64,000 nucleotides of DNA, from NCBI GenBank assembly GCA_050944615.1, contig JBMNRL010000016.1, positions 4,262-68,261 of the forward strand. Direction: 5' to 3'. Of this stretch, positions 4,611-54,600 are shown one piece after another. The notes under the pieces were generated by a model. The model was not told where the DNA came from, did not search any database, and was given only the letters and a program-made list of their open reading frames with translations. Numbering within the stretch: position 1 is the stretch's first letter; the number at the start of each line of letters is the position of its first letter. A program made the translations under genes and the position numbers. Source of the DNA: Blautia sp. (lineage in GTDB: Bacteria; Bacillota; Clostridia; Lachnospirales; Lachnospiraceae).

Positions 4611-4686
4611 GGCATTTTCTCCTGGCACAGATATTTTGGGGCCCCGCTTGTACACACTGTCTCATCATCAGGAACACTTTGTTATT

Positions 4687-13302: not shown

Positions 13303-13308
13303 TTTCCT

Positions 13309-13337
13309 ATTATATAATCTTTTTTCTCCCTGTGCAA
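13309..13337 (-). promoter_or_regulatory. SigmaA promoter, possibly giving a leaderless mRNA
   Basis: TTGCAC-N17-TATAAT ending 6 nt before ATG 13302. Confidence 0.55.
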
Positions 13338-13392
13338 GGAGTGCTTTTTACGGTTTTCGTACAACAATTCCGCAAAAGTCCCCAGTTTTCTA

Positions 13393-13421
13393 TTGAATTT
13401 CCCATAAAATCCATGTATGAT
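13393..13421 (+). promoter_or_regulatory. SigmaA promoter of the deacetylase gene
   Basis: TTGAAT-N17-TATGAT with extended TG. Confidence 0.55.
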
Positions 13422-13485
13422 ATTGGTGTTAACATAAGTAGTGTTTCATTCAGGGGAGAATGAAATAAAAAAAGGGGGAAAGTAA

Positions 13486-14883
13486 GTGCCTGGTCGGAAG
13501 AAACGAACCAGTCGGGTGCTAATCCTTCTCACGGTGTTATTATCGCTGTTTTTTTCAGCGACTTTGACACAATCTTCTGCCAATCCTACGGCAGTATCCA
13601 GTGAGAAACAAATGCCCGACATCATAGTGGCCGAAAATACCCAGGAAAAAAGCCAGACTGCAGAGCTTACCGACAGCGGACTCACAGACGGCGATTTCCA
13701 AGGAGAGGCCAATACAGACGACCCAGCAAAAAAAGACGAGGAAACCTTTCAAAATTCCCAAAACACCGCCAAGGATGCGGATGAATCCTCTGCAGAGGAA
13801 CCAGAGGAGGAACCCATCGGCGACTGGATCTTGGATAATGGCAGCTGGTATTACCAAATCCACGATTATTACAAGACCGGATGGCTGTATGAAGACGACA
13901 AATGGTATTATTTCGATAAAACAGGCGTCATGCAGACCGGATGGGTAGAATCCCAGAAACGTTGGTTCTTCATGGATGAAGATGGTATCATGCAGACTGG
14001 ATGGGTACAGACGGGCGGCAAATGGTATCACATGGATGAGGAAGGCATCATGCAGACCGGATGGCTGGAGGTAGACGGACAATGGTACTACCTCAGCGAC
14101 AAAGGCGATATGCGGACCGGATGGATACAAATCGGTGACAAATGGTATTACTTTAATTCCAACGGCACCATGGCCACCGGGTGGATCGTAGCCAACGGCA
14201 AACGTTATTTCCTGCAGGATAATGGCGTATGGGATCCCGCCGCGGTTCCGGATGCCGCTTCTATTCCAGAAGCGCCCGAGGGCGCAATGGTAGCGCTTAC
14301 CTATGACGACGGGCCGGGACTGTACACAGACCGCCTGCTGGATACTTTAGAAGCCAACAATGCCAAAGCCACTTTCTTCATGCTGGGGGAAAATATACCA
14401 AATTACCCTTCCACGATTCAGCGTATGGAGGCGTTAGGCTGTGAACTCGGCAACCATACTGCGAACCATAAGGATCTGGCTGCCTTGACGCAGGAAGAAA
14501 TCACTGCCCAGGTAGGGCAGGTGGATCAGGCGCTCACCGATATCGTCGGACATGGCTCCACATTGGTGCGGCCGCCTTATGGATCCGCCAATGATCTGGT
14601 GAAGAGCACCGTGCAGGTGCCGCTCATTCTCTGGTCCATGGATACCCTGGACTGGAAGACCTTGGACATTCCTTCCACTGTGGATACAGTGTTTACCAAC
14701 ATCAAGGACGGCGATATCATACTGATGCATGACATTCACGAGACATCCGTGGCCGCATCTGAGATCATCATTCCTGCATTGGTGGAAAAAGGATATCAAT
14801 TGGTCACTGTCAGCGAGTTGGCAGCGGCAAAGGGAATTGAAATGCACACAGGAATCCTTTACGGAAATATGGGTCAGAATTAA
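13486..14883 (+). CDS. CE4 polysaccharide/peptidoglycan deacetylase with cell-wall-binding repeats
   Basis: About 7 x 20-aa GWxxxxxxWY(Y/F)...G.M repeats; TYDDGP, HTANH, RPPYG, DTLDW and LMHD motifs; N-terminal hydrophobic segment. Confidence 0.92.
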   Translation: MPGRKKRTSRVLILLTVLLSLFFSATLTQSSANPTAVSSEKQMPDIIVAENTQEKSQTAELTDSGLTDGDFQGEANTDDPAKKDEETFQNSQNTAKDADESSAEEPEEEPIGDWILDNGSWYYQIHDYYKTGWLYEDDKWYYFDKTGVMQTGWVESQKRWFFMDEDGIMQTGWVQTGGKWYHMDEEGIMQTGWLEVDGQWYYLSDKGDMRTGWIQIGDKWYYFNSNGTMATGWIVANGKRYFLQDNGVWDPAAVPDAASIPEAPEGAMVALTYDDGPGLYTDRLLDTLEANNAKATFFMLGENIPNYPSTIQRMEALGCELGNHTANHKDLAALTQEEITAQVGQVDQALTDIVGHGSTLVRPPYGSANDLVKSTVQVPLILWSMDTLDWKTLDIPSTVDTVFTNIKDGDIILMHDIHETSVAASEIIIPALVEKGYQLVTVSELAAAKGIEMHTGILYGNMGQN

Positions 14884-14901
14884 ATTTCAGACAAATGTCA
14901 T

Positions 14902-14939
14902 AAGGAGTGCCGGGCGATACTGCCTGGACACTCCTTTTT
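14902..14939 (+). terminator. Intrinsic terminator
   Basis: AAGGAGTG.C.GGC/GCCTGG.CACTCCTT stem plus T tract. Confidence 0.7.
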
Positions 14940-14941
14940 CA

Positions 14942-14974
14942 TTTCATAGGATGTGAAATAACCTTCCTATGAAA
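14942..14974. repeat. Isolated hairpin module related to the repeat family
   Basis: TTTCATAGGA-N13-TCCTATGAAA; arms match the 39615-39641 hairpin; sits between two terminators. Confidence 0.5.
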
Positions 14975-14976
14975 TA

Positions 14977-15022
14977 AAAAGAGCCATTACAAAAGTATTT
15001 TCACTCTTGTAATAGCTCTTTT
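14977..15022 (-). terminator. Intrinsic terminator
   Basis: AAAAGAGCCATTACAA/TTGTAATAGCTCTTTT inverted repeat. Confidence 0.7.
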
Positions 15023-15024
15023 GG

Positions 15025-15942
15025 TTATCTCAACAATTCAGAAAAGATATAACCGGTCTCGCCTTCGTATTCTACCTGGACCCAATCACCTTCCATACCT
15101 GTTTTGGTGATGGTATCCCCGGCACTCAACGAACCGATGACCTCCGCATCGCTGCTGGCTGCTTCCCGGATATTGCACGCCTCCTTGGCAGTAAGCTGTG
15201 CGCCTTCACCGGCAGACGCTGCCGTGCTGGACTCCGTTCCGAGATTATTCAGAAACTGTGCCAATGCCGGATCGCTTTCCTTCGCTTTATTATATTTGTC
15301 GTCTACCTGATTCCACAAAGCTTTCACATCCTGCGTCTGTAAATCCTCGTCCAGGAGTGCAGAAAGTTTGGAATCGCTGGTGGTATCTCCCACTATGTAT
15401 AGCTTGCCGTCCGCATCTGTCTTCACATACAGCTGGCTCATTGCCGGTACCGGAGTGGCTATCCCCGTACAGACATAATTGTAACAAGCATATACGATAT
15501 AACTATTTTCATCCAGGCCCTGTTTGGTGTGGACCTCCAAGTCCTGATAGCCGTCGATATACTTCGCATTTTGAATCTTTGTCTCCTCTGCGGGATCCAA
15601 AGCATCCACCACTGTCTTCAATGTAGCAACATCCTTACTGCCCAATGCATTATAATATGTTGTAATCAATGCATTCACTTCCGGATATTTATCTTGCTCC
15701 AATGGATTATCGCTTACGTCGTCATTCTTCTCGCTCGGCTCCCCATCTGTCGGAGAAGAAGGATCATTTCCCTTGTTATTCCTGTCCTCCTGCTGCGTCT
15801 GTGCTGTAGAATCACCCTTCATAATTCCACTGACCGCTCGGATTCCAAAGAATAATCCAGTTAGAATTACCAGAATGCCCGCGCCTAAAATAATATAGCG
15901 GAGGTTATCTGATAACCACTCTCTAAAATTATCCAAGTTCAT
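15025..15942 (-). CDS. Membrane-anchored SH3b domain protein
   Basis: Start reassigned to ATG 15942 (MNLDNF, RBS AGGAGG) because the longer ORF runs through the tRNA. One TM segment; C-terminal CNIREAASSDAEVIG...WVQVEYEGETGYI. Confidence 0.85.
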   Translation of the reverse strand: MNLDNFREWLSDNLRYIILGAGILVILTGLFFGIRAVSGIMKGDSTAQTQQEDRNNKGNDPSSPTDGEPSEKNDDVSDNPLEQDKYPEVNALITTYYNALGSKDVATLKTVVDALDPAEETKIQNAKYIDGYQDLEVHTKQGLDENSYIVYACYNYVCTGIATPVPAMSQLYVKTDADGKLYIVGDTTSDSKLSALLDEDLQTQDVKALWNQVDDKYNKAKESDPALAQFLNNLGTESSTAASAGEGAQLTAKEACNIREAASSDAEVIGSLSAGDTITKTGMEGDWVQVEYEGETGYIFSELLR

Positions 15943-29679: not shown

Positions 29680-29934
29680 ATGAGACTATGTGACCTGAAA
29701 CAAAAAGAAGTCATCAATACCGCAACCTGCAAAAGTCTGGGCTGCCCCATCGACATCGAATTCGACTGCAAGAAGGGCTGCGTTCTGGCCTTAGTCCTCC
29801 CGGGCCCCGGAAGGATCTGCAGTCTCCTAGGACGGGACAGTGAATATATCATTCCCTGGGACTGCATCTGCCAGATCGGCGAGGACATCATCCTGGTAAA
29901 TATCAAAGAAGACAACTGCCTTCACAAAAATTGA
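29680..29934 (+). CDS. ylmC: YlmC/YmxH family sporulation PRC-barrel protein
   Basis: MRLCDLKQKEVIN...LG...DIEFD...IIPWDCICQIGEDIILV. Confidence 0.9.
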   Translation: MRLCDLKQKEVINTATCKSLGCPIDIEFDCKKGCVLALVLPGPGRICSLLGRDSEYIIPWDCICQIGEDIILVNIKEDNCLHKN

Positions 29935-29945
29935 ACTGCGGTCTG

Positions 29946-30611
29946 TCAAAACCATTCTGCCACCTCCAGCAGGGAGTCCGCACACCCTGCCAAAAGCGTC
30001 TCCACCGGAGAAATATCCCGCAGAAGATCCGGTACCATCACAGGCAGCATCCCCGCCTGGTAAGCAGAACGGATTCCATGATAAGAATCCTCCAATGCCA
30101 TCGCCTGCTGTGGATCAACGCCAAGAGCCTCACAGGCTTTTACATAGATTTCCGGATCCGGCTTCGCCTTTTTGACCATATCCCCGGTAATAATGGTCTG
30201 GAAATAGGACTCAATCCCTTCTCTTGTGATATTTCCCAGGGCATACTCCCGGCTGGAGGATGTCGCCACTGCCATGGAAATCCCCCGCCGCTTCAATGCT
30301 TCCAAAAGCTCATGGAGCCCTTTCTTGGCCGGCAGTCCATGCTCATCCACATAAGCGGCAAACTCCAGACGGTAGCGGCGGCGGAATTCCTCGTAGGGAA
30401 AATCTTCTCCATAGGCTCCCAAAAAATACTGCCGTCTCCTGGCATTATTAAATCCCAGCGTATTCCTCACATTGTCATCTCCCAGTGCTCCATAGCCCAT
30501 CTTCTGGCCTGCCTGGTTCCAGGATATCTGTATGATCCGCTCGCTGTCAAACATCAGGCCATCCATGTCAAACACGACGGCAACGGGCAGTTTCTCAATC
30601 TTTTTCAACAA
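29946..30611 (-). CDS. HAD-superfamily phosphatase (Ia, beta-PGM-like)
   Basis: FDMDGLMFDSE, ATSS, KPDP and EDS motifs. Confidence 0.9.
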   Translation of the reverse strand: MLKKIEKLPVAVVFDMDGLMFDSERIIQISWNQAGQKMGYGALGDDNVRNTLGFNNARRRQYFLGAYGEDFPYEEFRRRYRLEFAAYVDEHGLPAKKGLHELLEALKRRGISMAVATSSSREYALGNITREGIESYFQTIITGDMVKKAKPDPEIYVKACEALGVDPQQAMALEDSYHGIRSAYQAGMLPVMVPDLLRDISPVETLLAGCADSLLEVAEWF

Positions 30612-30724
30612 TATTCTTCTCCTTATCCACTGTCTTTCCAGCCTCTTCTATGGTATAATCATATACGAAATAGACGCCGTGCGCAAGAGATGCACAGACA
30701 GACATCACCGGAAAGGAGAGACGT

Positions 30725-31468
30725 ATGGATTTAGAACTTTTACTATCCCAGGTACGTTCTGGGGAAATGGACATAGAACAGGCGAAGGAGCATCTGAAAA
30801 CCCTTCCCTATGAGGATCTGGGCTTTGCCAAACTGGATCACCACCGCAAACTCCGCAGCGGCTATGGGGAAGTGATCTACTGTGCGGGCAAGACTGTGGA
30901 GCATATGATAAAAATCTACCAGAGCTTCTTCGAAAAAGGGGTCAATGTCTTGGGGACCAGGGCTACGCCACAGCAGGCCGAAGCTTTGCAGAAGGTACTT
31001 CCAAACGCCGAATATGATCCTCTGTCCCGGATTCTTCAGGTCATCCACCAGCCGGTGGAACAAATCGGCTGTGTGGCCGTGTGCACCGGAGGGACCTCTG
31101 ATATAGGAGTGGCTGAAGAAGCTGCCCTCACTGCTGAATTCTTAGGCGCTAAGGTCAACCGGATCTATGATGTGGGTGTGGCCGGCATCCACCGCCTCCT
31201 CTCCAAAACCGACGATCTGCGCCATGCCAACTGCATCGTTGCCGTAGCGGGAATGGAGGGTGCTCTGGGCGGCGTGGTAGCCGGACTCGTGGACAAACCG
31301 GTGATCGCCGTTCCTACCTCCATAGGCTACGGTGCCAGCTTCCACGGGCTATCCGCCTTGCTCACCATGCTCAATTCCTGCGCAGAAGGGATCTCCGTGG
31401 TAAATATTGACAACGGCTTCGGCGCCGGGTATAATGCCGCACAGATCAACCGCCTGGCGGTTCATTGA
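30725..31468 (+). CDS. larB: Nickel pincer cofactor biosynthesis protein LarB
   Basis: AKLDHHR...GYGEVIYC.GKT, GGTSD, DVGVAGIHRL, AGMEGAL, PTSIGYG and VVNIDNGFGA motifs. Confidence 0.93.
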   Translation: MDLELLLSQVRSGEMDIEQAKEHLKTLPYEDLGFAKLDHHRKLRSGYGEVIYCAGKTVEHMIKIYQSFFEKGVNVLGTRATPQQAEALQKVLPNAEYDPLSRILQVIHQPVEQIGCVAVCTGGTSDIGVAEEAALTAEFLGAKVNRIYDVGVAGIHRLLSKTDDLRHANCIVAVAGMEGALGGVVAGLVDKPVIAVPTSIGYGASFHGLSALLTMLNSCAEGISVVNIDNGFGAGYNAAQINRLAVH

Positions 31469-31514: not shown

Positions 31515-31564
31515 AAAAGAAAGCCTCAGACTGGCCAAAGCTGGCCAGCCCGAGGCTTTCTTTT
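31515..31564. terminator. Bidirectional terminator between larB and glycerate kinase
   Basis: AAAAGAAAGCCTC/GAGGCTTTCTTTT with an internal TGGCCA hairpin. Confidence 0.75.
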
Positions 31565-31599: not shown

Positions 31600-32733
31600 T
31601 TATCTGACGCTTTTCATCAGACGGAGGATGTTATCTACGGTCAATTCCAGATTCTCAGCGCTGTTGTGTCTGCTCACAGAGAAATCCTGGGGCAGACGGT
31701 TGATGGTAAATACAGAAGATACCCCCATCTCATAAGCAGCCTCAATATCCGGCTCTGCGCCTCCGGCGATCACGGTCACCGGCACACTCTGCTCTTTGGC
31801 ACGTTTGGCCACGCCGATCACCACCTTGCCGCGCAGGCTCTGGGTATCCATCTTGCCCTCGCCTGTGAACACCATATCCGCATCGGAAATGATGGAATCA
31901 AACTTCACCGTATCCAACACTGTCTCAATGCCCATCTGCAAGGTGGAACCAAAGAAGGCCAGCATCCCTGCGCCCATCGCACCAGCGGCGCCGGCGCCGG
32001 GAACCAGGGAATAATCCTTGCCCAGATCTCTTTGAATCACTTCTGATAAATGCACCAGTCCTGCATCCAGCTCTTTCACCATATCCGGATCCGCACCCTT
32101 TTGCGGCCCAAAAATGTAAGCCGCCCCTGTCTCACCGTACATCGGATTGTCAATATCACACATAGTCACGATCTCTGTGTTTTTGACCTCTGAAGCGACG
32201 CCGGATACATCAATCCGGTCAATTTCGATCAGAGTTCCGCCCGTAGGCACAAACTCTTCTCCGGCTTTGTTGAAGAAACGCACGCCCACCGCAGCCGCAG
32301 CACCGCAGCCGCCGTCGTTGGTAGAGGAGCCGCCAAGGCCTGTGACAATCTTCTTCACGCCCTTTTTTGCGGCAGCCAGGATCAGCTGCCCCACGCCGTA
32401 GGTCGTTGTAAGCTTGGGATTTTTCCGGTCTTCCACCAGAGGCAGCCCCGCACAGCTTGCCATCTCCACCACAGCGGTCTCCCCATGATCGATCAGTCCG
32501 TAGAAAGCTTCCATATCTTCAAAATAAGGATTCTTCACGATCTCCTTGATTTTTTCACCACCAAGGGCTGTAAGGAAGCAGTCCACGCTGCCCTCCCCGC
32601 CGTCGGCTACCGGAATGGACACCACTTCACATCCGGGAAAATGCTCTTCAATCTTCCGGGAAATAATGCCGCAAATCTGTTCTGAACTTAAGGTTCCCTT
32701 AAAAGAATCGGGAATCAACACTGCCTTTTTCAT
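31600..32733 (-). CDS. glxK: Glycerate kinase (GlxK family)
   Basis: PDSFKGTL, ADGGEG, GLGGSSTNDGG, GAGAAGAMG and TGEGKMD motifs. Confidence 0.93.
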   Translation of the reverse strand: MKKAVLIPDSFKGTLSSEQICGIISRKIEEHFPGCEVVSIPVADGGEGSVDCFLTALGGEKIKEIVKNPYFEDMEAFYGLIDHGETAVVEMASCAGLPLVEDRKNPKLTTTYGVGQLILAAAKKGVKKIVTGLGGSSTNDGGCGAAAAVGVRFFNKAGEEFVPTGGTLIEIDRIDVSGVASEVKNTEIVTMCDIDNPMYGETGAAYIFGPQKGADPDMVKELDAGLVHLSEVIQRDLGKDYSLVPGAGAAGAMGAGMLAFFGSTLQMGIETVLDTVKFDSIISDADMVFTGEGKMDTQSLRGKVVIGVAKRAKEQSVPVTVIAGGAEPDIEAAYEMGVSSVFTINRLPQDFSVSRHNSAENLELTVDNILRLMKSVR

Positions 32734-32765
32734 TGGCTTCTCCTCCTGTTATCTTACCATCCCTT

Positions 32766-34040
32766 TTATTCAATCACCATCACGGATACGCCGTCTGGAA
32801 TGGCTGTCACCGTAGCTTTTGGATTCTTCACGATATCCTCAGCGATGGCCATCGCCTCTTCCAAAGAATGGGCCGGCACCATATGGAGCCCTTTTACCAT
32901 CTCATCGGGAGCTTCGGATACATAGACCACGGTAGCCTTCTGCAGCACACGGATAAAAATCTGTGTCTGCCACTGATCTGGTACCGTCTCGTTGCGGCCT
33001 CTGCTCATAAACAGATCCAGCGTCTTAGAAATATCCGGCTCATCCGCCATCTGATGGTAGAAATGGTCACCGCCGTGGCCATCGTTGGATTTGGCCAGCA
33101 TCACGATAACACCGCCCTTTTTCACGGTAGCCTCTGCCGCCGTCATTCCTTTGACTGCCTGATAGATATTCTGATCCAGCGGATAGCCGCCGTTGGTGGA
33201 GATGACGATATCTGCCGGAACCGCGTCCACCTTACACAGGCCGCTTAAAAACTCACAGCCTTTGGCATGTGCCTCTTCCATATCCCCGGCCACTGCAAAA
33301 ATCGCTTCCTTCTGTGCATTGATAACCACATTGACAATAAATGCCAGGTTTGCTTTTCTGGCTGCCCATACCATATCTTTATGGATCGGGTTACCTTCCA
33401 AGATTCCGGTCCTGGATTTCGGATCGGCGATGAATTCGGAACAATGGTTTGCCATCACTGTAACACGGCTGGCCACCCCTGGCAATACGCTTTTTCTGGC
33501 TCCGGAAAAGCCCGCAAAGAAATGCGGCTCGATAAAGCCTTCTGCCACCAGAAGATCCGCATCATATGCCACTTTATTGATGAGGCACTCCCCGCCGGAA
33601 GGCAGCGTTCCAATATTTACCATGTTGGGATCATCACAATCATGGATCACAATGTTCTCATTGGCTACAATCTCTTCTCCGAATTTGTTCACCAATTCAT
33701 CCTTGGTCGTGCCTCTGTGGCATCCGGTAGCGATGAGAATTGTGATATCCGCATCTGGATTTCCTCTGCGGATTTCTTCCAGCATGGCCGGAACGATGGC
33801 CTTGCTTGGTACTGGACGGGTGTGGTCGCTGGCGATGAGCACCACGTTTTTCTTGTCTTTGGCCAATTCGGAAAGCGTCTTAGTTCCCACCGGATTTGCC
33901 AACGCTTCTCTTACCAGCTCTTCCTGGTTCTTCTCGGCCTGATAATGATGTAAATTAGATACTAACACTGCCTGTAATCTGTCATCTGCGATAGCAAACG
34001 GCAGCATCTCTTTGCCATAAGGAAATTTTACTTCTGCCAT
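32766..34040 (-). CDS. larA: Nickel-pincer-dependent lactate racemase family protein
   Basis: SDHTRP, ATGCHR, EPHFFAGFSGARKS, NH, GGYPLDQNIYQAVKG and PDQW motifs. Confidence 0.93.
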   Translation of the reverse strand: MAEVKFPYGKEMLPFAIADDRLQAVLVSNLHHYQAEKNQEELVREALANPVGTKTLSELAKDKKNVVLIASDHTRPVPSKAIVPAMLEEIRRGNPDADITILIATGCHRGTTKDELVNKFGEEIVANENIVIHDCDDPNMVNIGTLPSGGECLINKVAYDADLLVAEGFIEPHFFAGFSGARKSVLPGVASRVTVMANHCSEFIADPKSRTGILEGNPIHKDMVWAARKANLAFIVNVVINAQKEAIFAVAGDMEEAHAKGCEFLSGLCKVDAVPADIVISTNGGYPLDQNIYQAVKGMTAAEATVKKGGVIVMLAKSNDGHGGDHFYHQMADEPDISKTLDLFMSRGRNETVPDQWQTQIFIRVLQKATVVYVSEAPDEMVKGLHMVPAHSLEEAMAIAEDIVKNPKATVTAIPDGVSVMVIE

Positions 34041-34085
34041 AACAATAGTTCTCCTTTTCCGAAATAGTTGGGGTATCCCATCTAT

Positions 34086-35303
34086 TTAAAACGTCTCTTT
34101 TAATTTCCGCAGTCCATAGCTGATCGCGTCTTCTCTTCCGAAGGCACCGGCTTTGGTGATCACATGAAGGCCTTCCTGATCTCCGCCTACCAGACTCATG
34201 ATAGGAATGCCGATGGCCACCTCACCTAAAATTCTGGAGCCTTCCGCATGTACCATATCAAAAAGACCGATGGCCGTATCGCCTCCGGTGAGAAAAATAC
34301 CGGAAACTGCTGCTGCCTTCAGGATATCCCTGCCGATCTCCCCCATGATATTCTGGGTTTTCAGACTGATCTCTGGCCCCGTCATTCCCAATGCTTTACC
34401 GCATTCCAGTGTCTTATCGTACTCCTTCCGGTCATAGGAAGCGGAGGACAGCACGATGGTATCGAGGCCCTTCCTCAGAAATTCTGCCGCATTCTGCACA
34501 TAGGTTTCTGTGGGCTTGCCGCTTAAAATCTCATAAATCGGCACCTGTACCAGCTTCGCTCCCGCATTCTCGGCATATTTCACCTGTTTTGCAGTCACGG
34601 AGCTTAAACTCGCCACCAAAGCCATGGAAGGCTTCACCGGAGAATCGATTTCGAACAGATTGTCCGCCATAGCCGCCGTCCCCACATAGAGTATCCTTTT
34701 CTCCAGCTTCGCAGCTTGGCCCAAAACCTTCTGCATATCCTCATTGGTCACCGCGTCACAGGCAAAGAGCCTTCCTTTTGAAAAATCCAGCTCCCCTTTT
34801 TCAATCTGGGTCAAGGTCACTGCTGTCACCGGTTCCCCATAGACGCTTTCCAGGATCTTTTGGATATTGTCTTCTGTCACCGGTTTTTTAGGATCCTTCG
34901 CCAATTCTGTCAAGGTGATCGGCGTCCCGTTCAGATGATGAACGCCATTGACAGTCGTCCGGGAAAGATCCGGAAGTGCCGGCATGAATAATACCATGTC
35001 GCTTCCATAGGCTTCATCCAGAGCTTTTATCTCAGAAGCCACATTTCCGCGGAGGGTGGAATCCACCTTTTTAATCACATATTTGTAATCCTCAAATCTG
35101 ACCTTGGAAACATCGCTCTTAACTTTCTCATAGGCCTCTTGTTCTGATAAACCGCGGCTTTCCGTGTCAATGACATAGGAAGCATCCGCGGACCGGTCTT
35201 CATACCGGAAGACCACATGTGTGTCGAACCCTCTCCGCCTTAACTGCACTCCTGTATCATTGGCGCCGGTAAAATCATCTGCTACTATCAAATTTCTGCT
35301 CAT
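34086..35303 (-). CDS. Four-carbon acid sugar kinase (DUF1537, DtnK/DenK-like)
   Basis: ADDFTGANDTG, DTESR, KKVDSTLRGN, TGGDTA and TKAGAFG motifs; probable start ATG 35303. Confidence 0.92.
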   Translation of the reverse strand: MSRNLIVADDFTGANDTGVQLRRRGFDTHVVFRYEDRSADASYVIDTESRGLSEQEAYEKVKSDVSKVRFEDYKYVIKKVDSTLRGNVASEIKALDEAYGSDMVLFMPALPDLSRTTVNGVHHLNGTPITLTELAKDPKKPVTEDNIQKILESVYGEPVTAVTLTQIEKGELDFSKGRLFACDAVTNEDMQKVLGQAAKLEKRILYVGTAAMADNLFEIDSPVKPSMALVASLSSVTAKQVKYAENAGAKLVQVPIYEILSGKPTETYVQNAAEFLRKGLDTIVLSSASYDRKEYDKTLECGKALGMTGPEISLKTQNIMGEIGRDILKAAAVSGIFLTGGDTAIGLFDMVHAEGSRILGEVAIGIPIMSLVGGDQEGLHVITKAGAFGREDAISYGLRKLKETF

Positions 35304-35313
35304 ATGTATCACC

Positions 35314-36261
35314 TTATTTCGCTGCTGCTTTCGCTTTCTCCCTCTTATCCAGGAAGTTTACGAGAAGAGGACAGCAGATAGCTGTCACGATAATGGCTGC
35401 TGCTACCTGTACGGTTGAAAGAGCCGCAACTGCGGATAATGTGGGGTCTACCTCGGCCAAGGCAGCCGGTGTTCCTACTGCGTTTCCTGCGGTGGTACCA
35501 ACTGCGGCACCTACTGCCGGATGTTTTGCTCTCATCAGCTTGAGTACGAAATATCCACCCAGACCTGTGATGACGGTAACTGCAACACCCAGTACGATGC
35601 CCGGAAGACCTGCCTCCACAATCTGTGTCCACTTTAATCCGGTTCCCAGAGCAAATGCGAAGAACGGGATCGGAAGAACGGTTCCTTTTCCTAAAAGCTC
35701 TCTTAAGTCCTCATCCAGGTTACCCAGGATAAATCCCAAGACGATTGGAATGATACAAGCAATTAATGACATAAACGGAACGTTGGCAATCCCTGCCGCG
35801 CCCAACGCTACCATGGTAAAGAACGGACCGTCATTTAAGGACAAGATAGAGATCGCACCTACATCAGATGCATCGCCGTACTGGCCGGCCAAAGCGGCAT
35901 AAAGACCGCCGTTAGAGTTGGTCATGGCAGCTACGATCGCCAGCGGAGTCAATCCCAGCACACCGGCAGGGCCGCACAATTTTCCGATGACCACGCCGAT
36001 CACAGCGCCGATGATAAACTTGATCGCTGTCAAGGCCACACCTTTTCCTAACGTGGAACCTGCTTGCTTCACATTGATCTGTGCGGCATTGCACAGACAG
36101 AACAGCGCGATCAATGCGGTGGCACTGTCTTTGAACAACGCTGTGGTAAATCCTCCGATGGTCAGCGCATCCGGAGCTAACGTATTCAATGTGGCTCCCA
36201 GCAGCAGAGGCACAACCATTAAGCCTCCGGGTACTTTTTGTACGGTTTTTAAAATCTTCAT
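35314..36261 (-). CDS. kdgT: 2-keto-3-deoxygluconate permease family transporter
   Basis: KVPGGLMVVPL, NSNGGLY, NDGPF, PFFAFALG and GNAVGTPAA motifs. Confidence 0.92.
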   Translation of the reverse strand: MKILKTVQKVPGGLMVVPLLLGATLNTLAPDALTIGGFTTALFKDSATALIALFCLCNAAQINVKQAGSTLGKGVALTAIKFIIGAVIGVVIGKLCGPAGVLGLTPLAIVAAMTNSNGGLYAALAGQYGDASDVGAISILSLNDGPFFTMVALGAAGIANVPFMSLIACIIPIVLGFILGNLDEDLRELLGKGTVLPIPFFAFALGTGLKWTQIVEAGLPGIVLGVAVTVITGLGGYFVLKLMRAKHPAVGAAVGTTAGNAVGTPAALAEVDPTLSAVAALSTVQVAAAIIVTAICCPLLVNFLDKREKAKAAAK

Positions 36262-36393
36262 TTCTCCCTCTCCTTTCGAGCAGCGTTTTTGCTTCTCGTT
36301 TCTTAGTATATTTCATAGAAAAACCGCATGCTCATGCGGTTTTCACTATGCGTAATAACGGGGACCTCAGGTCCTTGTGCACAGGTGTGTGCA

Positions 36394-37425
36394 TTAACGG
36401 TTATTTGCCAGAGTCACTGCGTAATCAATGGCATTGATCAGGCTCAGCTCATTGGCATTACCCTTTCCGGCATGTCCGAATGCCGTTCCGTGATCCACAG
36501 AAGTACGGATGATCGGCAGCCCCAAGGTGATGTTCACACCGGCCACCGCGTTCCATTCCTTCTTCTCATCGTTGTATACAAAGCCCACAACCTTCAGCGG
36601 GATATGCCCCTGATCGTGATACATCGCGACCACGATATCAAACCATCCGCCTCTGGCTTTGGAGAAAATCGTATCCGGTGCTACCGGCCCTTCCACATGG
36701 ATTCCCTCTGCCTTCGCCGCTTCCACTGCCGGTGTGATCTCTTCGATTTCTTCCCGGCCGAACAGCCCGTTTTCACCGCAGTGCGGATTCAGTCCTGCCA
36801 CGCCCACCTTCGGTTCCTGGATCCCCAGGGCCTTACATGCGTCATTTGCAATACGGATCACATCCAGCACACGCTGCTTCTTCACACGGTCACAAGCCTC
36901 ACGCAGGGAAACATGCGTGGACACGTGAACCACCCGCAGATTTTCATGGGCCAGCAGCATGGTGTACTTATCTGTATTTGTAAAATCCGCGTAGATTTCG
37001 GTATGGCCGGAATAATGGTGGCCAGCCAGATTGATGGCCTCCTTATTCAACGCATTGGTCACCGTAGCATCGATTTCTCCTGCCATAGCCAGCTCAATGA
37101 CCTTCTTCACACACTGAAAGGCTGTCTCGCCGCCCATCTTAGAGACTTTTCCAAACTCCAGCTGATCCATATCCACCATATCCAGATCATATACGTCAAT
37201 GGTGCCAGCTTCAAATTTCGCATCTTTTACAGATTTTACGCTGTGAATCCGGATGCTATCTTCCATGCCCACGATCTTGACTGCATTTTCCATTACTTTG
37301 GCATCCCCTACGATCAGAGGGCGGCATTTTTCATAAATGCCAGCATTAGCCAATGCTTTCACTGAAATCTCCGGTCCGATGCTCACCGGATCTCCCATGG
37401 TAATACCTAAGATTGGTTTTTTCAT
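36394..37425 (-). CDS. pdxA: PdxA2-type tetronate-4-phosphate dehydrogenase (PdxA family)
   Basis: ITMGDP, GHTE, HVSLR, GLNPH, YHDQGHIPLK and RTSVDHGTAF motifs; operon context with DUF1537 kinase. Confidence 0.92.
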   Translation of the reverse strand: MKKPILGITMGDPVSIGPEISVKALANAGIYEKCRPLIVGDAKVMENAVKIVGMEDSIRIHSVKSVKDAKFEAGTIDVYDLDMVDMDQLEFGKVSKMGGETAFQCVKKVIELAMAGEIDATVTNALNKEAINLAGHHYSGHTEIYADFTNTDKYTMLLAHENLRVVHVSTHVSLREACDRVKKQRVLDVIRIANDACKALGIQEPKVGVAGLNPHCGENGLFGREEIEEITPAVEAAKAEGIHVEGPVAPDTIFSKARGGWFDIVVAMYHDQGHIPLKVVGFVYNDEKKEWNAVAGVNITLGLPIIRTSVDHGTAFGHAGKGNANELSLINAIDYAVTLANNR

Positions 37426-37459
37426 TTTGTTTCCTCCTTAAAACCTTACCTTTGCCATC

Positions 37460-37476
37460 CGTTTCATTTTGAAACA
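37460..37476. promoter_or_regulatory. Putative operator 1 of the PrpR-like regulator
   Basis: Palindrome CGTTTCA-TTT-TGAAACA. Confidence 0.6.
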
Positions 37477-37503
37477 CATTTGTTTTTCTTATCAATTTTT
37501 CTT

Positions 37504-37533
37504 ATTATATCCTCTCATTTGTTCTTTTTCAAT
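37504..37533 (-). promoter_or_regulatory. SigmaA-type promoter of the pdxA operon
   Basis: TTGAAA-N18-TATAAT. Confidence 0.55.
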
Positions 37534-37552
37534 TCCCTCTTACGTCATTTTT

Positions 37553-37569
37553 TGTTTTAATTTGAAACA
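37553..37569. promoter_or_regulatory. Putative operator 2
   Basis: TGTTTTA-ATT-TGAAACA, one mismatch from consensus TGTTTCA-N3-TGAAACA. Confidence 0.55.
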
Positions 37570-37585
37570 TCATTTTTTATTCTTA

Positions 37586-37614
37586 TTGCAATATGACGTA
37601 GCTGCCGATATAAT
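37586..37614 (+). promoter_or_regulatory. SigmaA promoter of the regulator
   Basis: TTGCAA-N17-TATAAT. Confidence 0.65.
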
Positions 37615-37715
37615 ATAAATAAGCATTGGCCCAGTGCCATAATCCAAAGTGCACGATTGATACGGGGTGCCCGAAGTGCACCGTTTCTATTTTTAACAAA
37701 TGAGGAGGGACCGTT

Positions 37716-39521
37716 TTGAGGAAAGTCAAGATACTATTTATTGCGCCTTATCCGGGCCTGGTAGAGCCGATCAACCATGTGATCAAAGCCCATCATGATA
37801 TTGAGGCCACCATTAAGATCGGCGATATGAAGGATGGCGCTCTTATCGCAAAATCCATGATGGTCCATCACTATGACGTAATCATTTCCCGCGGCGGTAC
37901 CGCAGAGCTCATTCGGAAGTCTGTGGAACTGCCGGTAGTAAATATTCCGGTATCCGTTTACGATATCATCCGTTCCATTAAAATGGCGGAAAACTACTGC
38001 GAAGATTTCGCCATTGCCGGTTATCCCAGCATCACCGAATGCGCCAAAATTCTCTGCGATCTCCTGCAGTTGAATACCGAAATCATCACCTTTGACAAAA
38101 TGGAAGACATTCCCCAACAGCTGGGGGCCCTGCGCAAAAAAGGCTACGAGCTGGTAATCTGTGATACCATCGGTGTGACCACGGCCAGCCAGATGGGCAT
38201 GAATTCCATTCTCATCTCCTCCTGGACGGAAAGCATCGAACAGGCAGTGGAAAATGCCCGCTCCCTGGTCAGATCCTCGTATTATTATTTTCGCCAGAAA
38301 GAAATTTTCCAATCCATCCTCACCAGCAAAGAGGAGGATCTGCTCATTTATGATCCCAATGGCCTTTTGTGGTTTTCCAGCATCTCCAAGCCGACGATGC
38401 AGAACATGGTTTACAGCCTGGTACAGCCCTATCTTCCCTCCTTTTTACAGGAACCGGGACAAAAAATTGAGAAACGGGCGGGCTCCACACTCTATTCCAT
38501 ACAGAACCGCCATTTCTATCCCGACGGTCAGAAATACACGGTGATCACCATTTCCCGCAAGGAGTTCCTGTTTTCTGAACAAGATCAGAGCATCTCCATC
38601 TACAACCAGCGGGAAGAAGGCAACGAGGATTTCAGCTTCAGCTACAACAGCGCCAACTATATCGGCAATATCCGGGATACCATCGATTCTTACAGCAAAA
38701 CTTTGTTTCCCGTGCTGATCCTGGGGGAAAACGGCACCGGCAAGGATAAGGCCGCTTCCATCATCTATAAAAACAGCTCCTTACAAAACCATCCGCTGTA
38801 CACGGTGGACTGTGAGCTTCTGGGCGAACGGCGCTGGTCCACCTTACTTAGCAGCAGCAATTCCCCGCTGAACTCCGTGAACAGCACCATCTACTTTAAG
38901 AACATCAATTTTCTCAATAATGCGCAGCTGGAACGGCTGATTTCCTATATGGACCAGGCCAATCTCTCCAGGCTGAACCACTTGTTATTTTCCTACGTGG
39001 AAACACCCGGCGCCCCATCCAGTGAATCCTCCATCTGCAATTACCTGATGAACCGCACAAACTGCCTGGTGCTGCGCTTGCCGCCTCTTAGAGAACGGCA
39101 GAAAGACATCCCCAGCATCTTAACATTATACTTAAACCAGCTAAACCTGGAACTGGGCAAGCAGATCATCGGTTTCGAACCGGAAGCCATGGACCTGATG
39201 AAGAACTTCCCGTGGCCGCAGAATTTAAACCAGCTTCAGCGGATTCTCCGGGAACTGGCGGTGCTCACCACGGATTCCTACATCACCAAAAAGGCCACCA
39301 AAGAACGCTTAAAAAGTGAAAGCTTCTCCGCTTCCTTGCCCTGGCAGGAGGCCAAGGACTTTCCTCTGGACTTAAACCGTTCCCTGGAGGAAATCAATTA
39401 TGATATCATCCGCATGGTTTTGAGTGAAGAAAACAACAACAAAGAAAGAGCCGCCAAGCGGCTGGGCATCAGCCGCAGCACTCTCTGGCGGATCTTAAAG
39501 GCGCATGACAGCACCCAATAG
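37716..39521 (+). CDS. PrpR-N domain / AAA-like / Fis-HTH transcriptional regulator (GAFTGA-less)
   Basis: N-terminal DVIISRGGTA (PrpR_N), Walker A GENGTGK, WPQNLNQL, C-terminal NKERAAKRLGISRSTLWR; TTG start after GAGGAGG. Confidence 0.88.
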   Translation: MRKVKILFIAPYPGLVEPINHVIKAHHDIEATIKIGDMKDGALIAKSMMVHHYDVIISRGGTAELIRKSVELPVVNIPVSVYDIIRSIKMAENYCEDFAIAGYPSITECAKILCDLLQLNTEIITFDKMEDIPQQLGALRKKGYELVICDTIGVTTASQMGMNSILISSWTESIEQAVENARSLVRSSYYYFRQKEIFQSILTSKEEDLLIYDPNGLLWFSSISKPTMQNMVYSLVQPYLPSFLQEPGQKIEKRAGSTLYSIQNRHFYPDGQKYTVITISRKEFLFSEQDQSISIYNQREEGNEDFSFSYNSANYIGNIRDTIDSYSKTLFPVLILGENGTGKDKAASIIYKNSSLQNHPLYTVDCELLGERRWSTLLSSSNSPLNSVNSTIYFKNINFLNNAQLERLISYMDQANLSRLNHLLFSYVETPGAPSSESSICNYLMNRTNCLVLRLPPLRERQKDIPSILTLYLNQLNLELGKQIIGFEPEAMDLMKNFPWPQNLNQLQRILRELAVLTTDSYITKKATKERLKSESFSASLPWQEAKDFPLDLNRSLEEINYDIIRMVLSEENNNKERAAKRLGISRSTLWRILKAHDSTQ

Positions 39522-50248: not shown

Positions 50249-51634
50249 TCACCGGGACAAGCCTTTGGTATTTCTTCCCGCCAAAGCGGCGCTGTAGGCG
50301 CCTTCCTGCCACAGGGGCAGAATCCAGGCCTCCTCTTCGATCCAGTCCTCAAAGGCTTCACAGTACCTGGAAAGCTCCATCTCTTCCCCCGGGACAAAGG
50401 GCCCTTCTTCTGCCAGCAATTCTTCATACCAGCCGCAGTACAAATACATGGAAACGTCCTGGCCTGTCAGCGGGCCTTCCTTAATTTTGTCCTGCTGCTC
50501 TACGGTAATTCCTTGTTGTTCCCAAGCTTTTATCAGCCAATCAGCCACAGCCATTGCCGCATTGTCCTGTCCTCTGTATAAGGTGAGGGACTTCCAGGAA
50601 GCATCCGCAGCCTTTTGTCCTTTTTTCTCTTTGGGACTTCTGTCCAACAAAATTCCTTTCGGCAGCAGTCCTTGGGAAAAACAATCCTCAAAGAGTTTTT
50701 CCCGGTCGATGGACTGCATTACCAGCTGCCGCTTCTGCAGATCTGCCATTTCCGGATGATTCCGGTTACACACCAGATACATCCCATAAGCTTTGCCAAA
50801 CTCATAAATATCATAAGCCCCGTCCCCGCAGGCCGCTTCCTCCTGACTGTCACTGACAGACATCCAATCGTAAGCCTGCGCTTTGAGTATTCCGGTGAAA
50901 TCTTTGCCTCCCGGCGTCTCTATCTGTACGTTTTTATAAGGAAAATCCTCCGCGGTCATCCCGTCCCGGAGGGACAGGCGCACCGATTTTGACGGTACCA
51001 GGGTATCTATTTCATAAGGTCCGCTGCCGGCTAAGGTCTCATTTTTCTTCAAAAGCTCCTCCGTTACATGCATCACGGGAACCTCAAGCACCTTCAAATT
51101 GTCAATGGAATTTCCGGTAAACTGAATCCGGAGGATTCCCTCCTCCACCGGCTCGGCCTTGGCCACCTTCTGTAAAACCACCTGGTATGCGCTTTCATTT
51201 GCCATTTCCTGATGCCAGCCAAACGCAGCAGCCACAGCTTCTGCGGTCACATCAGAGCCGTCACGAAACGTACGGTCTGCTTTTAATGTAACCTCCGCCT
51301 CCTGCCCGTCTTGAGAGATCACAACCTTCTCAGCCAGCGCATAGGTCAGGGAGCCATCCTGGTTTCTATAAGCCAAAGGTTCATAGACCAGCTTTTTCAA
51401 TATATCCATCGTCTCATTCTGTCCTTGGTATGGATGAATGGACGATGGAATCTGGGATGCGCCCACCATAAGAGTTTCTTTTCTGTCCTCTTCCATTTTC
51501 CGCACTTTGGCGGTATCTCCTTCATGGATCAAATAGGGAACCGAAGGCTGGCGGTGCCAGAAAAGCACCGCCAGCAAAACAACAGCTCCCGCTACGGCGA
51601 TCACCGCCGCAGCACATTTCTTTTTTCTTGTCAT
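50249..51634 (-). CDS. Family-5 (Opp/Dpp-like) solute-binding-fold protein with N-terminal TM anchor
   Basis: LVYEPL...ALAEKVVISQDG...TL.....FRDGS.VTAEAV, GSGPY, RQLVMQSIDRE; start ATG 51634 overlaps the adhesin stop (ATGA). Confidence 0.8.
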   Translation of the reverse strand: MTRKKKCAAAVIAVAGAVVLLAVLFWHRQPSVPYLIHEGDTAKVRKMEEDRKETLMVGASQIPSSIHPYQGQNETMDILKKLVYEPLAYRNQDGSLTYALAEKVVISQDGQEAEVTLKADRTFRDGSDVTAEAVAAAFGWHQEMANESAYQVVLQKVAKAEPVEEGILRIQFTGNSIDNLKVLEVPVMHVTEELLKKNETLAGSGPYEIDTLVPSKSVRLSLRDGMTAEDFPYKNVQIETPGGKDFTGILKAQAYDWMSVSDSQEEAACGDGAYDIYEFGKAYGMYLVCNRNHPEMADLQKRQLVMQSIDREKLFEDCFSQGLLPKGILLDRSPKEKKGQKAADASWKSLTLYRGQDNAAMAVADWLIKAWEQQGITVEQQDKIKEGPLTGQDVSMYLYCGWYEELLAEEGPFVPGEEMELSRYCEAFEDWIEEEAWILPLWQEGAYSAALAGRNTKGLSR

Positions 51635-54600
51635 CTCATATCCTGCATAGAGCTGCTGCCCTGCTTCTTCTCCTTTCTCCGATAGCGGATGCATCCGACT
51701 GCCAGGAGCCCGGCCAGGGCCATCAGCAGAAGCATCCATTCGGTCTGTGTTTCATCTCCCGTCTTCACCGGTTTTTCCAGCTTCACAGACGTGGCCGGAC
51801 GCGTCGGCAGGATCAGCTGCGGACGTTTCGGGGGCACCAGCCACTCCACAGGTTCATCCTGCGCCGCTTTTGGAATGTGATATCCCAAATACAGTGTCTT
51901 TTCCTTGGCCTCAGCTTCATAGCTTTGCTGGTAATAATTCTTTTGGGTACGTTCCAAAGCCAGAGTCACGCCTTGGGTGATACCTGTATTCGGATTCGTC
52001 TCCTGAACCACACCTGCCGGTTTTCCGCAGACATTATGGCCTGTCAGAGTTTCTGTTCCAACCGCGTATACCCGGGTGAATGCCGCATGATCCTTCTTGT
52101 TCATTTTCAGCCGGTAGACATAAGGTGTTCCCTCTTCGTCCACCGCCGGAAGCTCCTCAAACCGGAACTGTCCTTTATCATCTGTGACAGCGGTCCGCCC
52201 TTCAAAGGATGCATAGACACCGTCACAAATCACACAGTAAGGATCAGAAACCAATTCCGTCCGGCTGTGAGAGCCCACTTTGTATTCCAGGGATACCTCA
52301 TAGCCTTCTACGGCGCTGTCTTCCCATTCCATAATGCCGTTGCGGTTCTTATCCTCAAATACAACACCGCTGATGGCACCCGGCTGATAGGGCTTAAGAC
52401 CCGCATCATTGCCCGTCACGTCATGTCCTTTCACACAGCTGTAGCCTTCCAGGTTTCCATCCTCCTTAGACTTCTTTGAAAGAAGGAGGAAATCCTTATC
52501 GTATGCATATTTTGCCAGCGGCACCAGATAACCGGTCATTTCGTCCAGATCACTATCATAGCTGCCTCCGTTTTTCCGGAAGGCCGTTACGGTCTTATCC
52601 ATGGGGATTTCCTGGATATGCAGACGATAGCCTGCCAGGACCTTCTCACCCTTCCAGTCCGCAGACAACGGAAGGTCTTCAAAAGCGTATTCCCCATCTT
52701 CATCGGTATATGCATAGACAGTCAACCCATCCTGCAGCTTCCACTGGCCGCGGATCCGGTAATAGGTCTCCAGACAAACTTCCACATCCGCAATACCCGC
52801 TTCCGCATCCTGACGGATGCCGTCGCCATCACTGTCCTCCCAGACGGTTCCGGCAATCCGGTGGTATTCCTTCTCCACCAAACCAGCATTGTAATCCGTC
52901 TCATGAGAGGCATGGACTTTGTCAAACGGAGAAGCCTCCTCGCCGGTTTCCTTGGCAATCATAATACACCCTTTGTAAATCTGGGGACCACCTTTTTTCG
53001 TGATCTCCATCGTCGCTTCCACAAGCGCGCTGTCCGCTATACCGCCGTTTGCCAGATAACGGGTGACTTCATAGCCGTCTTCCCGTTCCGGCATCCATAC
53101 CCGGTAACCGTATAGCTCTTTTGCTCCGCTGCCTGTATCAGCCGTCTCCAGGTCTTTAAACTGGTAACATCCTTTTTCATCCGTAGTCGTCTCCCGGTAG
53201 AAGGTTCCTTCCGGGAACTCCGGTATCCACTCTTTTGTACGCTCGTCATAACGGTACCGGCTCAGACAGATTCTTCTGCCTGCCAGCCGCTGATCCGCGT
53301 CTCCCAAGCGTCCGTCATATTCCTTATCGAGGAATACGGTTCCTGAGATACTGCCCCGTTCATAGGTGACGCCTCCACCGCCGCCGCGGGAATATCCGGC
53401 ACCGTAGCTGTCATCCTGGGCCCCTTTGACAAAGTCATAGATGCGGTTTCCATGATGCAGCGTATATGGTGTATTCGGTTTCCTGCCGCCGGTGACCTCC
53501 TGAGCCAGGAGAATGTATTCCCCTTCGTCTGTCAACGTCAGGGTCTTATCCTTCTGCTGCTTCAAATCGCTGTCCAGGACGGCATCCGTCCCTGCCCGGT
53601 ATCTGGTCGGAACCAGATCCTTTGGCATCTCAGTCAAAATCAACCGGTATGCATAGAGGAATTTATCTCCATTTTCCTCTCCATACGCAGGCAGATCGGT
53701 AAATTCATAATGTCCGTCTTCGCCTGTCACTGCTGTCTGCATCCGATCAACCAGCTCTTCCCACTGATCATCCGCCGTCTGCCGGTACCAGTGGAGCACA
53801 ATTTCGGCATCTGGCACTGTCTCCTCTTTTTCCTCACGGATGCCGTCGGAATCTTCATCCTTCCAGACATAGCCTCCGATCCGGCCCAGCGTATATTCTG
53901 TCACACCGCCGTCGCAATGGTCAAACGGTCCGGCAGCAACAGCCAGGTCATAGGAGACGCCGTTATATTTCCGGATGTAAGAGGAATCCTTCTTAGAACC
54001 CTCCAAGGCCTTTGCCAGGATATAGAATTCCTCACCCTTCACCGTCTCCATTTTGCCAGAAACGGCATTTAGGTCACTGTCCACATCCTCTGCCACACCT
54101 GCATAGTGCTGATGGGTGACAGCGTACTGGTCATAGGGGCTTTGGAATTTGCCCACACGCACCGTATAACCCGCCAGATAGAGGATATCATTGACTTCCA
54201 CATAGACAGGCAGGTCCGTAAATTCATAGATGCCGTCCTCTGTATTTTGATTTACAAGGACAGATGCCGTCGCAGATGCCTGATAGCATTTCTCTGCCGT
54301 ATCCGTACTTGCGGTATTGGCTGCACTGACTATCCATTGTCCTTGATCCGGATCATAGTAATACTGGGTCAAATACACGGGTACATCGTTGATTCCCGCA
54401 TCTTTATCGGACTGGTATTCCCCGTCATAGGCCGTATCCTCAAAGATCCGTCCGGAAATGGAGGAAAGTCCTGTCTTCACAAGGCCTGCATTGTATTCCT
54501 CCCGTTCTTCAGCAAGCGCGATGTCATAGCCGCTTCTCATGTTCTGGCTGGCACTTGATTTTACCTCGTCCTGCCAATATTTGGCCGCTATCACATAGCT

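Follow-up and report, generated by a model that had tools for sequence, protein, structure and literature searches.

Catabolism of the four-carbon sugar acids D-threonate and D-erythronate reportedly depends on a DUF1537 kinase (DtnK or DenK) and on the dehydrogenase PdxA2, and we know of no described tetronate pathway that includes a nickel-pincer nucleotide (NPN) racemase or a glycerate kinase. Here, we describe a locus of Blautia sp. in which genes of all these kinds stand side by side. It lies in a 64,000-nucleotide stretch of contig JBMNRL010000016.1 (GenBank assembly GCA_050944615.1, positions 4,262 to 68,261 of the forward strand), referred to below as the window, and comprises, according to open reading frame (ORF) listing and family scans, five co-oriented minus-strand genes: pdxA2, kdgT, a DUF1537 kinase gene, larA and glxK. 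As in the DtnK/DenK and PdxA2 pathway, the DUF1537 kinase gene is found together with that of a PdxA2-type dehydrogenase whose predicted product is dihydroxyacetone phosphate (DHAP); unlike that pathway, the locus also contains a KdgT-family permease, an NPN racemase and a glycerate kinase, and its kinase and dehydrogenase score below the equivalog level. The five-gene set recurs in other genomes with racemases of two lineages, and we consider the chances slightly better than even that it forms a two-branch catabolic operon for small sugar acids.

The individual parts are known: tetronate catabolism by DUF1537 kinase and PdxA2, LarA racemases, including their ability to racemise glycerate in vitro, and GlxK. 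In L. plantarum, larA belongs to the larABCDE operon, which also contains a lactate channel, whereas the window larA is placed between sugar-acid kinases with only larB close by. In the E. coli regulon of GarK/GlxK and the sugar diacid regulator CdaR, a GlxK-family kinase carries out the terminal step that brings glycerate into glycolysis, and the D-glycerate comes from tartronate semialdehyde reductase with no racemase involved. CdaR-type regulators recur beside LarA genes related to that of the window, which is a point of likeness to this regulon. LarA homologues have been placed in sugar-acid pathways as the D-gluconate 2-epimerase GntE and as malate racemase (Desguin et al., Sci Rep 2020, PMC7583248). 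Like these enzymes, the window LarA would invert C2 by means of NPN and yield the stereoisomer usable by a downstream kinase or dehydrogenase, but it differs from them in subgroup, pocket residues and substrate.

The closest biochemical reference is the study of Urdiain-Arraiza et al. (JBC 2024, PMC11770544), where the lactate-racemase (LAR) group was defined by F175, F176, W358 and E/Q359. Every member of the group tested there also racemises glycerate, and residue 359 is the only clear pocket difference among the tested enzymes. LarAH43, with Gln at this position, has a kcat/KM of 1.1e5 for glycerate and 8e4 for lactate; LarAH51 (Glu) and LarA1 of L. plantarum (Thr) are less active on glycerate and prefer lactate 10-fold and 17-fold, respectively. 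The authors ascribed the glycerate preference to Gln359, left the physiological significance of glycerate racemisation to be determined and gave no genomic context. Two four-carbon acids were converted by the four tested LAR enzymes at about 1e2 M-1 s-1, which is about 200-1000-fold under the best three-carbon substrate; for LarAH43, the values were 1-4e2 on 2,4-dihydroxybutyrate and the 4-deoxy-tetronates, so that Gln359 goes together with an activity on four-carbon acids lower by about 500-fold. Threonate and erythronate proper are not among the substrates reported.

The five-gene locus and its predicted enzymes

The product of larA (32766..34040, minus strand) is an NPN-dependent 2-hydroxyacid racemase of the Gln-359 type with the Pfam domains Lar_N and LarA_C (239 and 219 bits). 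It passes the NCBIfam lactate-racemase equivalog Ni_dep_LarA (632 bits at a cut-off of 460), falls under the cut-offs of the malate-racemase and LarAH10 models, and is 56% and 55% identical, respectively, to the solved lactate racemases of Thermoanaerobacterium thermosaccharolyticum (2YJG) and L. plantarum (5HUQ). In the alignment, all catalytic and cofactor residues are conserved. His108, His174, Arg75, Lys184, His200, Tyr294, Gln295 and Lys298 of the L. plantarum enzyme correspond to window positions 108, 173, 75, 183, 199, 293, 294 and 297; of these, His108 and His174 are catalytic, Arg75, Lys184 and His200 bind NPN, and Tyr294, Gln295 and Lys298 bind the substrate carboxylate (PMC11770544). 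The window protein has H-F-F at 173-175 and Y-Q-x-x-K at 293-297 in addition to His108, Lys183, His199 and Arg75, and the two motifs named in the original prediction are indeed present. With the two solved enzymes it shares the fold, the catalytic His pair, the Lys tether, the His nickel ligand and the carboxylate-binding Tyr/Gln/Lys; it is unlike them at position 359, where they have Thr or Glu and prefer lactate 10-17-fold. Its specificity signature is F, F, W, Q, with Gln where L. plantarum has Thr359, and in this it agrees with LarAH43 from Enterocloster asparagiformis, another member of the Lachnospiraceae and of the same subgroup (the termini of LarAH43 derived from primers, both N- and C-terminal, matched none of the LarAs collected here). 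The window LarA is therefore predicted to be a LAR-group enzyme racemising glycerate and lactate, and the group scores and the signature bear out the earlier view of it as a lactate-racemase-type enzyme for small substrates.

The neighbouring glxK (31600..32733, minus strand) codes for a glycerate kinase of the GlxK/GarK type (Pfam Gly_kinase, 461 bits; TIGR00045, 413 bits at a cut-off of 168; PDB 3CWC, 277 bits), which falls short of both the 2-kinase and the 3-kinase equivalogs of E. coli. Characterised class II (MOFRL) glycerate kinases prefer D-glycerate, and so the L form could be used productively only with the help of a racemase. The enzyme that opens nickel-pincer cofactor synthesis is encoded on the plus strand by larB (30725-31468; 297 bits with the NCBIfam LarB model, cut-off 175), which is convergent with the operon and separately transcribed, as judged from the sequence. 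It lies 131 nt from glxK, and a terminator-like hairpin (31522..31542, minus strand), an 8-pair stem followed by a TTCTTTT tail, lies between them. An ORF overlapping the start of larB (29931-30734, plus strand; 267 aa, TTG start) was considered as larE or larC and dismissed: it has no Pfam or NCBIfam match, and in the syntenic Blautia locus an 84-aa PRC-barrel gene is annotated there on the other strand, so that this ORF is unlikely to be a gene.

The remaining three genes point to tetronates. The DUF1537 four-carbon acid-sugar kinase (34086..35303, minus strand) is DtnK/DenK-like, with SBD_N and NBD_C domains (177 and 86 bits); translation starts at the ATG at 35303 and yields a protein of 405 aa, in agreement with the database protein P0121. 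Its best NCBIfam match is the D-threonate kinase (278 bits, below the cut-off of 450), the 3-oxo-tetronate kinase model gives 96 bits at a cut-off of 350, and its solved relatives are 4XFM (143 bits), 4XFR (123 bits) and 1YZY; its homologues are labelled D-threonate/D-erythronate kinase by JGI. The product of pdxA2 (36394..37425, minus strand) is a PdxA2-like NAD-dependent decarboxylating dehydrogenase (Pfam PdxA, 362 bits) with the PdxA-type motifs GHTE, HDQG and DHGTA. Bit scores against the sequences of solved structures (4JQP, 317; Salmonella PdxA2 2HI1, 300; the D-threonate 4-phosphate dehydrogenase 6E85, 288; E. coli PdxA, about 179) place it clearly nearer to PdxA2 than to PdxA of the PLP pathway; it exceeds the cut-off of the generic pdxA model TIGR00557 (345 bits, cut-off 290) and is below that of the D-threonate-4-phosphate dehydrogenase model NF002891 (347 bits, cut-off 583). 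The PdxA and DUF1537 kinase genes are paired in the window and likewise in L082-L095, our designations for related loci. The predicted reaction is the conversion of 4-phospho-D-threonate or 4-phospho-D-erythronate to DHAP and CO2. As kinase, PdxA2 and KdgT are all below the NCBIfam equivalog cut-offs, which speaks against too definite a reading, their exact substrates are not fixed by these scores; that of the kinase and PdxA2 is probably a tetronate of the D-series.

The permease gene kdgT (35314..36261, minus strand; Pfam KdgT, 403 bits) scores 240 bits with the NCBIfam 2-keto-3-deoxygluconate transporter TIGR00793, whose cut-off is 454. At the loci examined, KdgT is always accompanied either by a tetronate kinase and PdxA or by LarA, which makes a substrate other than 2-keto-3-deoxygluconate likely; we predict that the window permease imports small polyhydroxy acids of three or four carbons.

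Taken together, the five genes suggest the following scheme. A single KdgT-family permease would bring in small polyhydroxy monocarboxylates for both branches, which would also have one regulator of the PrpR_N type in common. In the first branch, by homology, the DUF1537 kinase would phosphorylate D-threonate and/or D-erythronate at C4, and the PdxA2-like dehydrogenase would oxidise C3 and decarboxylate the product to DHAP and CO2. In the second branch, LarA, supplied with NPN by LarB and by LarC and LarE encoded elsewhere, would convert L-glycerate to D-glycerate, with lactate as a likely co-substrate, and GlxK would phosphorylate D-glycerate to phosphoglycerate; both branches would feed lower glycolysis. 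Gene content, intact catalytic residues and the recurrence of the five genes in other genomes are observed; we infer the substrates throughout this scheme, those of the first branch from homology and those of the second from gene context, active-site residues and the published kinetics of relatives.

Recurrence of the gene set and contexts of LarA

The original prediction viewed the locus as a tetronate operon to which larA and glxK had been added and expected LarA to be conserved together with pdxA2 and the DUF1537 kinase; the comparison with other genomes fits both views. Contexts were drawn from contigs encoding kinase homologues, namely those of eight homologues 55-59% identical to the window kinase; a kinase-seeded metagenome scan gave 3 loci. 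Six of the eight sampled loci contained KdgT, kinase, PdxA, LarA and Gly_kinase together, five times in the order kdgT-kinase-pdxA-larA-glxK (L088, L090, L093, L094, L095) and once as pdxA-kinase-larA-glxK-kdgT (L091). The other two (L089, L092), like L086, keep regulator-pdxA-kdgT-kinase alone, in the window order. Each of the eight cassette loci contains larA as well as glxK, and L086, L089 and L092 have neither; in kinase-centred loci, the two genes are gained or lost as a pair. Since this set of genes is found again in independent genomes and in other orders, the cluster is more than a chance arrangement. A GH38 alpha-mannosidase gene (12400-15227, minus strand) adjoins the cassette of L088, a single instance that may be coincidental; the GH38 enzyme MngB of E. 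coli frees D-glycerate from mannosylglycerate.

The PdxA and KdgT of the window cassette are closest to their counterparts in the three-gene operons (73-74% and 76-83% identity, respectively), KdgT sharing 57-68% identity with the permeases of the remaining five-gene cassettes and about 52% with the LarA-paired permeases of other phyla; its GlxK is 73-78% identical to cassette GlxKs. The window LarA is 64-68% identical to cassette LarAs versus 77-81% to LarAs paired with KdgT, which come from spirochaetes, Synergistota and other Bacillota. In neighbour-joining trees, cassette LarAs formed a monophyletic group that excluded the window protein in 199 of 200 bootstraps, and the latter joined the KdgT-paired LarAs in 200 of 200. 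The existence of two LarA lineages means that racemase and glycerate kinase joined the tetronate genes at least twice, or else that LarA was replaced, and the assembly of the combination from two lineages, by either route, argues that it is under selection.

A wider survey covered 80 species-representative loci of close LarA relatives (66-88% identity), in which neighbours were counted within 5 kb. The KdgT permease is found near LarA in 22 of them, and PdxA and/or the DUF1537 kinase in seven, as is a CdaR-type "sugar diacid" regulator. Nine loci contain a glycerate kinase, almost always directly adjacent to larA (five of the GlxK type and four of the unrelated DUF4147/MOFRL type; binomial P about 3e-10 against an assumed background of 0.5%), and in eight of these nine there are no tetronate genes. 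No lactate permease, lactate dehydrogenase or lut genes were found among the recurrent neighbours in the 80 loci. When the cassettes are included, 17 LarAs adjoin a glycerate kinase of one or the other family, and all of them have the signature F, F, W, Q; one of the peptides used to search genomes contained Gln359, which biases the overall prevalence of Gln but leaves the match in 17 of 17 kinase-linked proteins standing.

Two further recurrent contexts of the same LarA clade were noticed. In metagenome-assembled genomes of spirochaetes (L027, L030, L036, L042, L043, L044), LarA is accompanied by a GntR/FCD regulator, a transketolase split into N and C parts, an iron-type alcohol dehydrogenase, a DUF4147/MOFRL glycerate kinase and a TIM barrel resembling xylose isomerase, a fold that hydroxypyruvate and oxo-tetronate isomerases also have; this may be a different pathway ending in glycerate. 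In the other context (L002, L003, L006, L007, L009-L015, L022, L073, L081), a conserved protein of about 300 aa comes after KdgT and LarA. Membrane helices at its N terminus are combined with a zinc-ribbon-like CxxC...CxxC stretch and a NUDIX domain, the last assigned by Pfam in the precomputed annotation of L081 and without a match when the copy of L015 was scanned. The occurrence of this triad in Treponema, Fretibacterium, Sphaerochaetaceae and Bacillota at 77-81% LarA identity suggests transfer between phyla.

The role of LarA: glycerate, tetronates or lactate

The original prediction left open whether LarA interconverts threonate and erythronate or converts L- to D-glycerate. The 17 larA-glycerate kinase loci, Gln in all of their LarAs and the recurrence of CdaR-type regulators make the latter option the better supported one. 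The interconversion of tetronates lacks positive biochemical support, given the kinetic gap between three- and four-carbon substrates, and what speaks for it is the presence of pdxA and DUF1537 kinase genes near LarA in loci with no visible glycerate kinase (L018, L022). If LarA were a 2-epimerase of D-erythronate and D-threonate, one pair of kinase and PdxA2 would consume both acids, and GlxK would be a passenger or serve some other feed. LarA-family enzymes do invert C2 of 2-hydroxy acids, and LAR enzymes measurably epimerise 4-deoxy-threonate and 4-deoxy-erythronate (PMC11770544); a single class of substrates would account for one permease and one regulator; and the seven tetronate-linked loci of the 80 are arranged in at least three ways and have kinases of two subfamilies (53% and 26-27% identical to the window kinase), several of these loci with no glycerate kinase in sight. 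Nevertheless, we regard an epimerase as rather unlikely: four LAR enzymes handle four-carbon acids 200-1000-fold less well than three-carbon ones, the pocket signature of the window LarA is unchanged, the three-gene operons manage without LarA, LarA never occurs without GlxK in kinase-centred loci, and eight loci combine LarA with a glycerate kinase in the absence of tetronate genes. The same gap and the same lack of a visible change in the pocket relative to ordinary lactate racemases make it improbable that LarA is a promiscuous C2 "de-chiraliser" that supplies GlxK with glycerate and the kinase and PdxA2 with tetronate epimers, even though LAR enzymes are promiscuous on small 2-hydroxy acids (PMC11770544), both kinds of partner genes recur beside one LarA clade whose members are about 80% identical, and such an enzyme would account for the behaviour of the cassette as a unit that has just one transporter.

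It is also conceivable, with a small probability in our estimate, that the cassette constitutes one undescribed route, with four-carbon acids as the substrates of the nickel-pincer enzyme. In one version of this route, LarA would again be a D-erythronate/D-threonate 2-epimerase; in the other, the kinase and PdxA would be specific for the L-series and the operon would clear L-threonate and L-glycerate, products of vitamin C breakdown, directly; if true, this would for the first time assign an NPN enzyme to tetronate catabolism. Oxidation of the PdxA type requires the 3R configuration, which is common to D-threonate and D-erythronate, so that L-threonate inverted at C2 cannot feed the kinase/PdxA2 branch unless enzyme specificity has changed. 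The link to ascorbate breakdown put forward earlier is speculation: homology points to tetronates of the D-series, and ascorbate gives L-threonate. Linear pathways through all five enzymes, either by tartrate decarboxylation by the PdxA-like enzyme or with L-series tetronates, were set aside because their stereochemistry or the need for a kinase calls for extra assumptions. Finally, LarA may be a plain lactate racemase that lies in the operon without being functionally connected to its neighbours. The equivalog score, the 55-56% identity to two proven lactate racemases and the near-equal activity of the Q-type LarAH43 on lactate and glycerate (PMC11770544) agree with this, but the association with glycerate kinase is found repeatedly, with the genes in different orders and with LarAs of two lineages, and lactate permease, lactate dehydrogenase and lut genes are missing from the recurrent neighbours, and thus we find it very unlikely.

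The two-branch operon with glycerate as the LarA substrate faces objections of its own. A conserved five-gene cassette usually represents one pathway, which makes a reading with two substrates less economical, and one permease and one regulator must serve acids of both three and four carbons. There is no clear natural source of L-glycerate. Gln359 is common in the LAR group, and the preference for glycerate is just 1.4-fold in the single tested enzyme. No larC or larE was found among the window ORFs of at least 200 aa. A glycerate kinase is not seen in six LarA loci that have tetronate genes, of which several are on short contigs and one (L018) has ample flanking sequence; in L003, L004, L005, L018 and L022, pdxA and the DUF1537 gene are found beside a LarA of this clade with no glycerate kinase visible, which hints at a direct link between LarA and tetronates, most of these contigs being short.

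Expression of the operon, its surroundings and its meaning

The gene set, the common strand and the adjacent larB are as described in the original prediction, and so are the short spacers between kdgT and the kinase gene, the kinase gene and larA, and larA and glxK (10, 45 and 32 nt), with a good ribosome-binding site before each operon gene; the 132-nt spacer between pdxA2 and kdgT is not short. It contains a stable hairpin followed by a T run (36314..36350, minus strand), with a minimum free energy of -41.9 kcal/mol for the spacer and a z-score of -4.4 (none of 200 shuffles was equally stable). The closest relative, L082, has a non-identical hairpin with a T run at the same position, and in L089 the spacer is just 13 nt and has no such hairpin. 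This structure may be a partial or internal terminator, an attenuator, a processing site or an RNA-stabilising element; pdxA2 may therefore be partly uncoupled from the other four genes, and the hairpin may set the level of pdxA2 apart from that of the genes downstream. We infer co-transcription of all five genes from their layout. The exact window sequence was found in one public run only, a DNA metagenome of a bioreactor, and none of the public runs found to carry it was an RNA run.

Divergently from pdxA2, a regulator is encoded (37716..39521, plus strand) that consists, according to Pfam, of a PrpR_N sensor, an AAA+ domain and a Fis-type helix-turn-helix. It has a Walker A motif (GENGTGK) and neither a G[AS]F[TS]GA motif nor Walker B; the regulators of L082, L089 and L092 also have no GAFTGA loop and no Walker B. 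The absence of both elements makes it probable that the window regulator does not depend on sigma-54. Control of the operon by sigma-54 was accordingly rejected: no valid -24/-12 promoter was found in the intergenic region 37426-37715, where the two halves of the sole TGGCAC...TGCT match are 2 nt too far apart. The regulators of the cassettes L090, L094 and L095 have PAS domains and GSFTGA, and canonical TGGCA-N7-TTGC sigma-54 promoters lie upstream of their kdgT genes. Upstream of pdxA2 in the window there is a candidate sigma-70-type promoter (37504..37532, minus strand; TTGAAA-17-TATAAT, 11 of 12 positions), identified by consensus match only and flanked by TGTTTCAAA repeats at 37561-37569 and 37468-37476. 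A GGATATAAT box and TGTTTCAAA / TGTTTAAAATTGAAACA elements are also present in the intergenic region of L082, and the sigma-70-like promoter with the TGTTTCAAA repeats is common to the window and Candidatus Blautia gallistercoris.

Synteny with Candidatus Blautia gallistercoris extends over more than 20 kb and includes the regulator, whose orthologue occupies the same position, the five genes, larB, nrdR and gdhA, with identities of 88% for LarA, 92% for PdxA2, 91% for LarB and 72% for the regulator. The GC content of the operon is 0.50-0.51, similar to that of its flanks, and together with the retained synteny this leaves a recent horizontal transfer of the operon unsupported. Elsewhere in the window there are the sporulation genes sigG and spoIIGA; a probable giant surface adhesin, encoded by a 4104-aa ORF (51631-63945, minus strand) with repeats of the SdrD B-like and CarboxypepD_reg types; and a 1234-aa ORF (14-3718, minus strand) without a Pfam match, which closely follows, on the same strand, a 306-aa ORF (3735-4655) with an N-terminal methylation motif of the pilin type.

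Full-text literature searches returned no paper on "glycerate racemase", none joining a four-carbon acid sugar kinase with lactate racemase, none joining lactate racemase with glycerate kinase or PdxA, and nothing relevant on LarA with DUF1537; hence, the conserved cassette and a role of Gln-359 LarA upstream of glycerate kinase appear to be undescribed. The original prediction spoke of a new acid-sugar pathway. Racemisation of glycerate by a LarA homologue was published in December 2024 and is therefore not new as a reaction, and the novelty is in its genomic and physiological context.

These observations suggest a rule worth checking when genes are annotated as lactate racemases, namely the presence of Gln359 together with a neighbouring glycerate kinase or CdaR-type regulator. 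They extend the DUF1537/PdxA2 tetronate pathway to anaerobic Clostridia of the gut, rumen and digester, with a KdgT-type permease as the likely importer, and the five-gene set recurs in many Clostridia. Assembled from two LarA lineages and with the racemase gene immediately before that of a D-preferring glycerate kinase, the cassette gives the racemisation of glycerate seen in vitro a testable natural role in the use of L-glycerate, where the racemase would probably let the cell use both mirror forms of glycerate.

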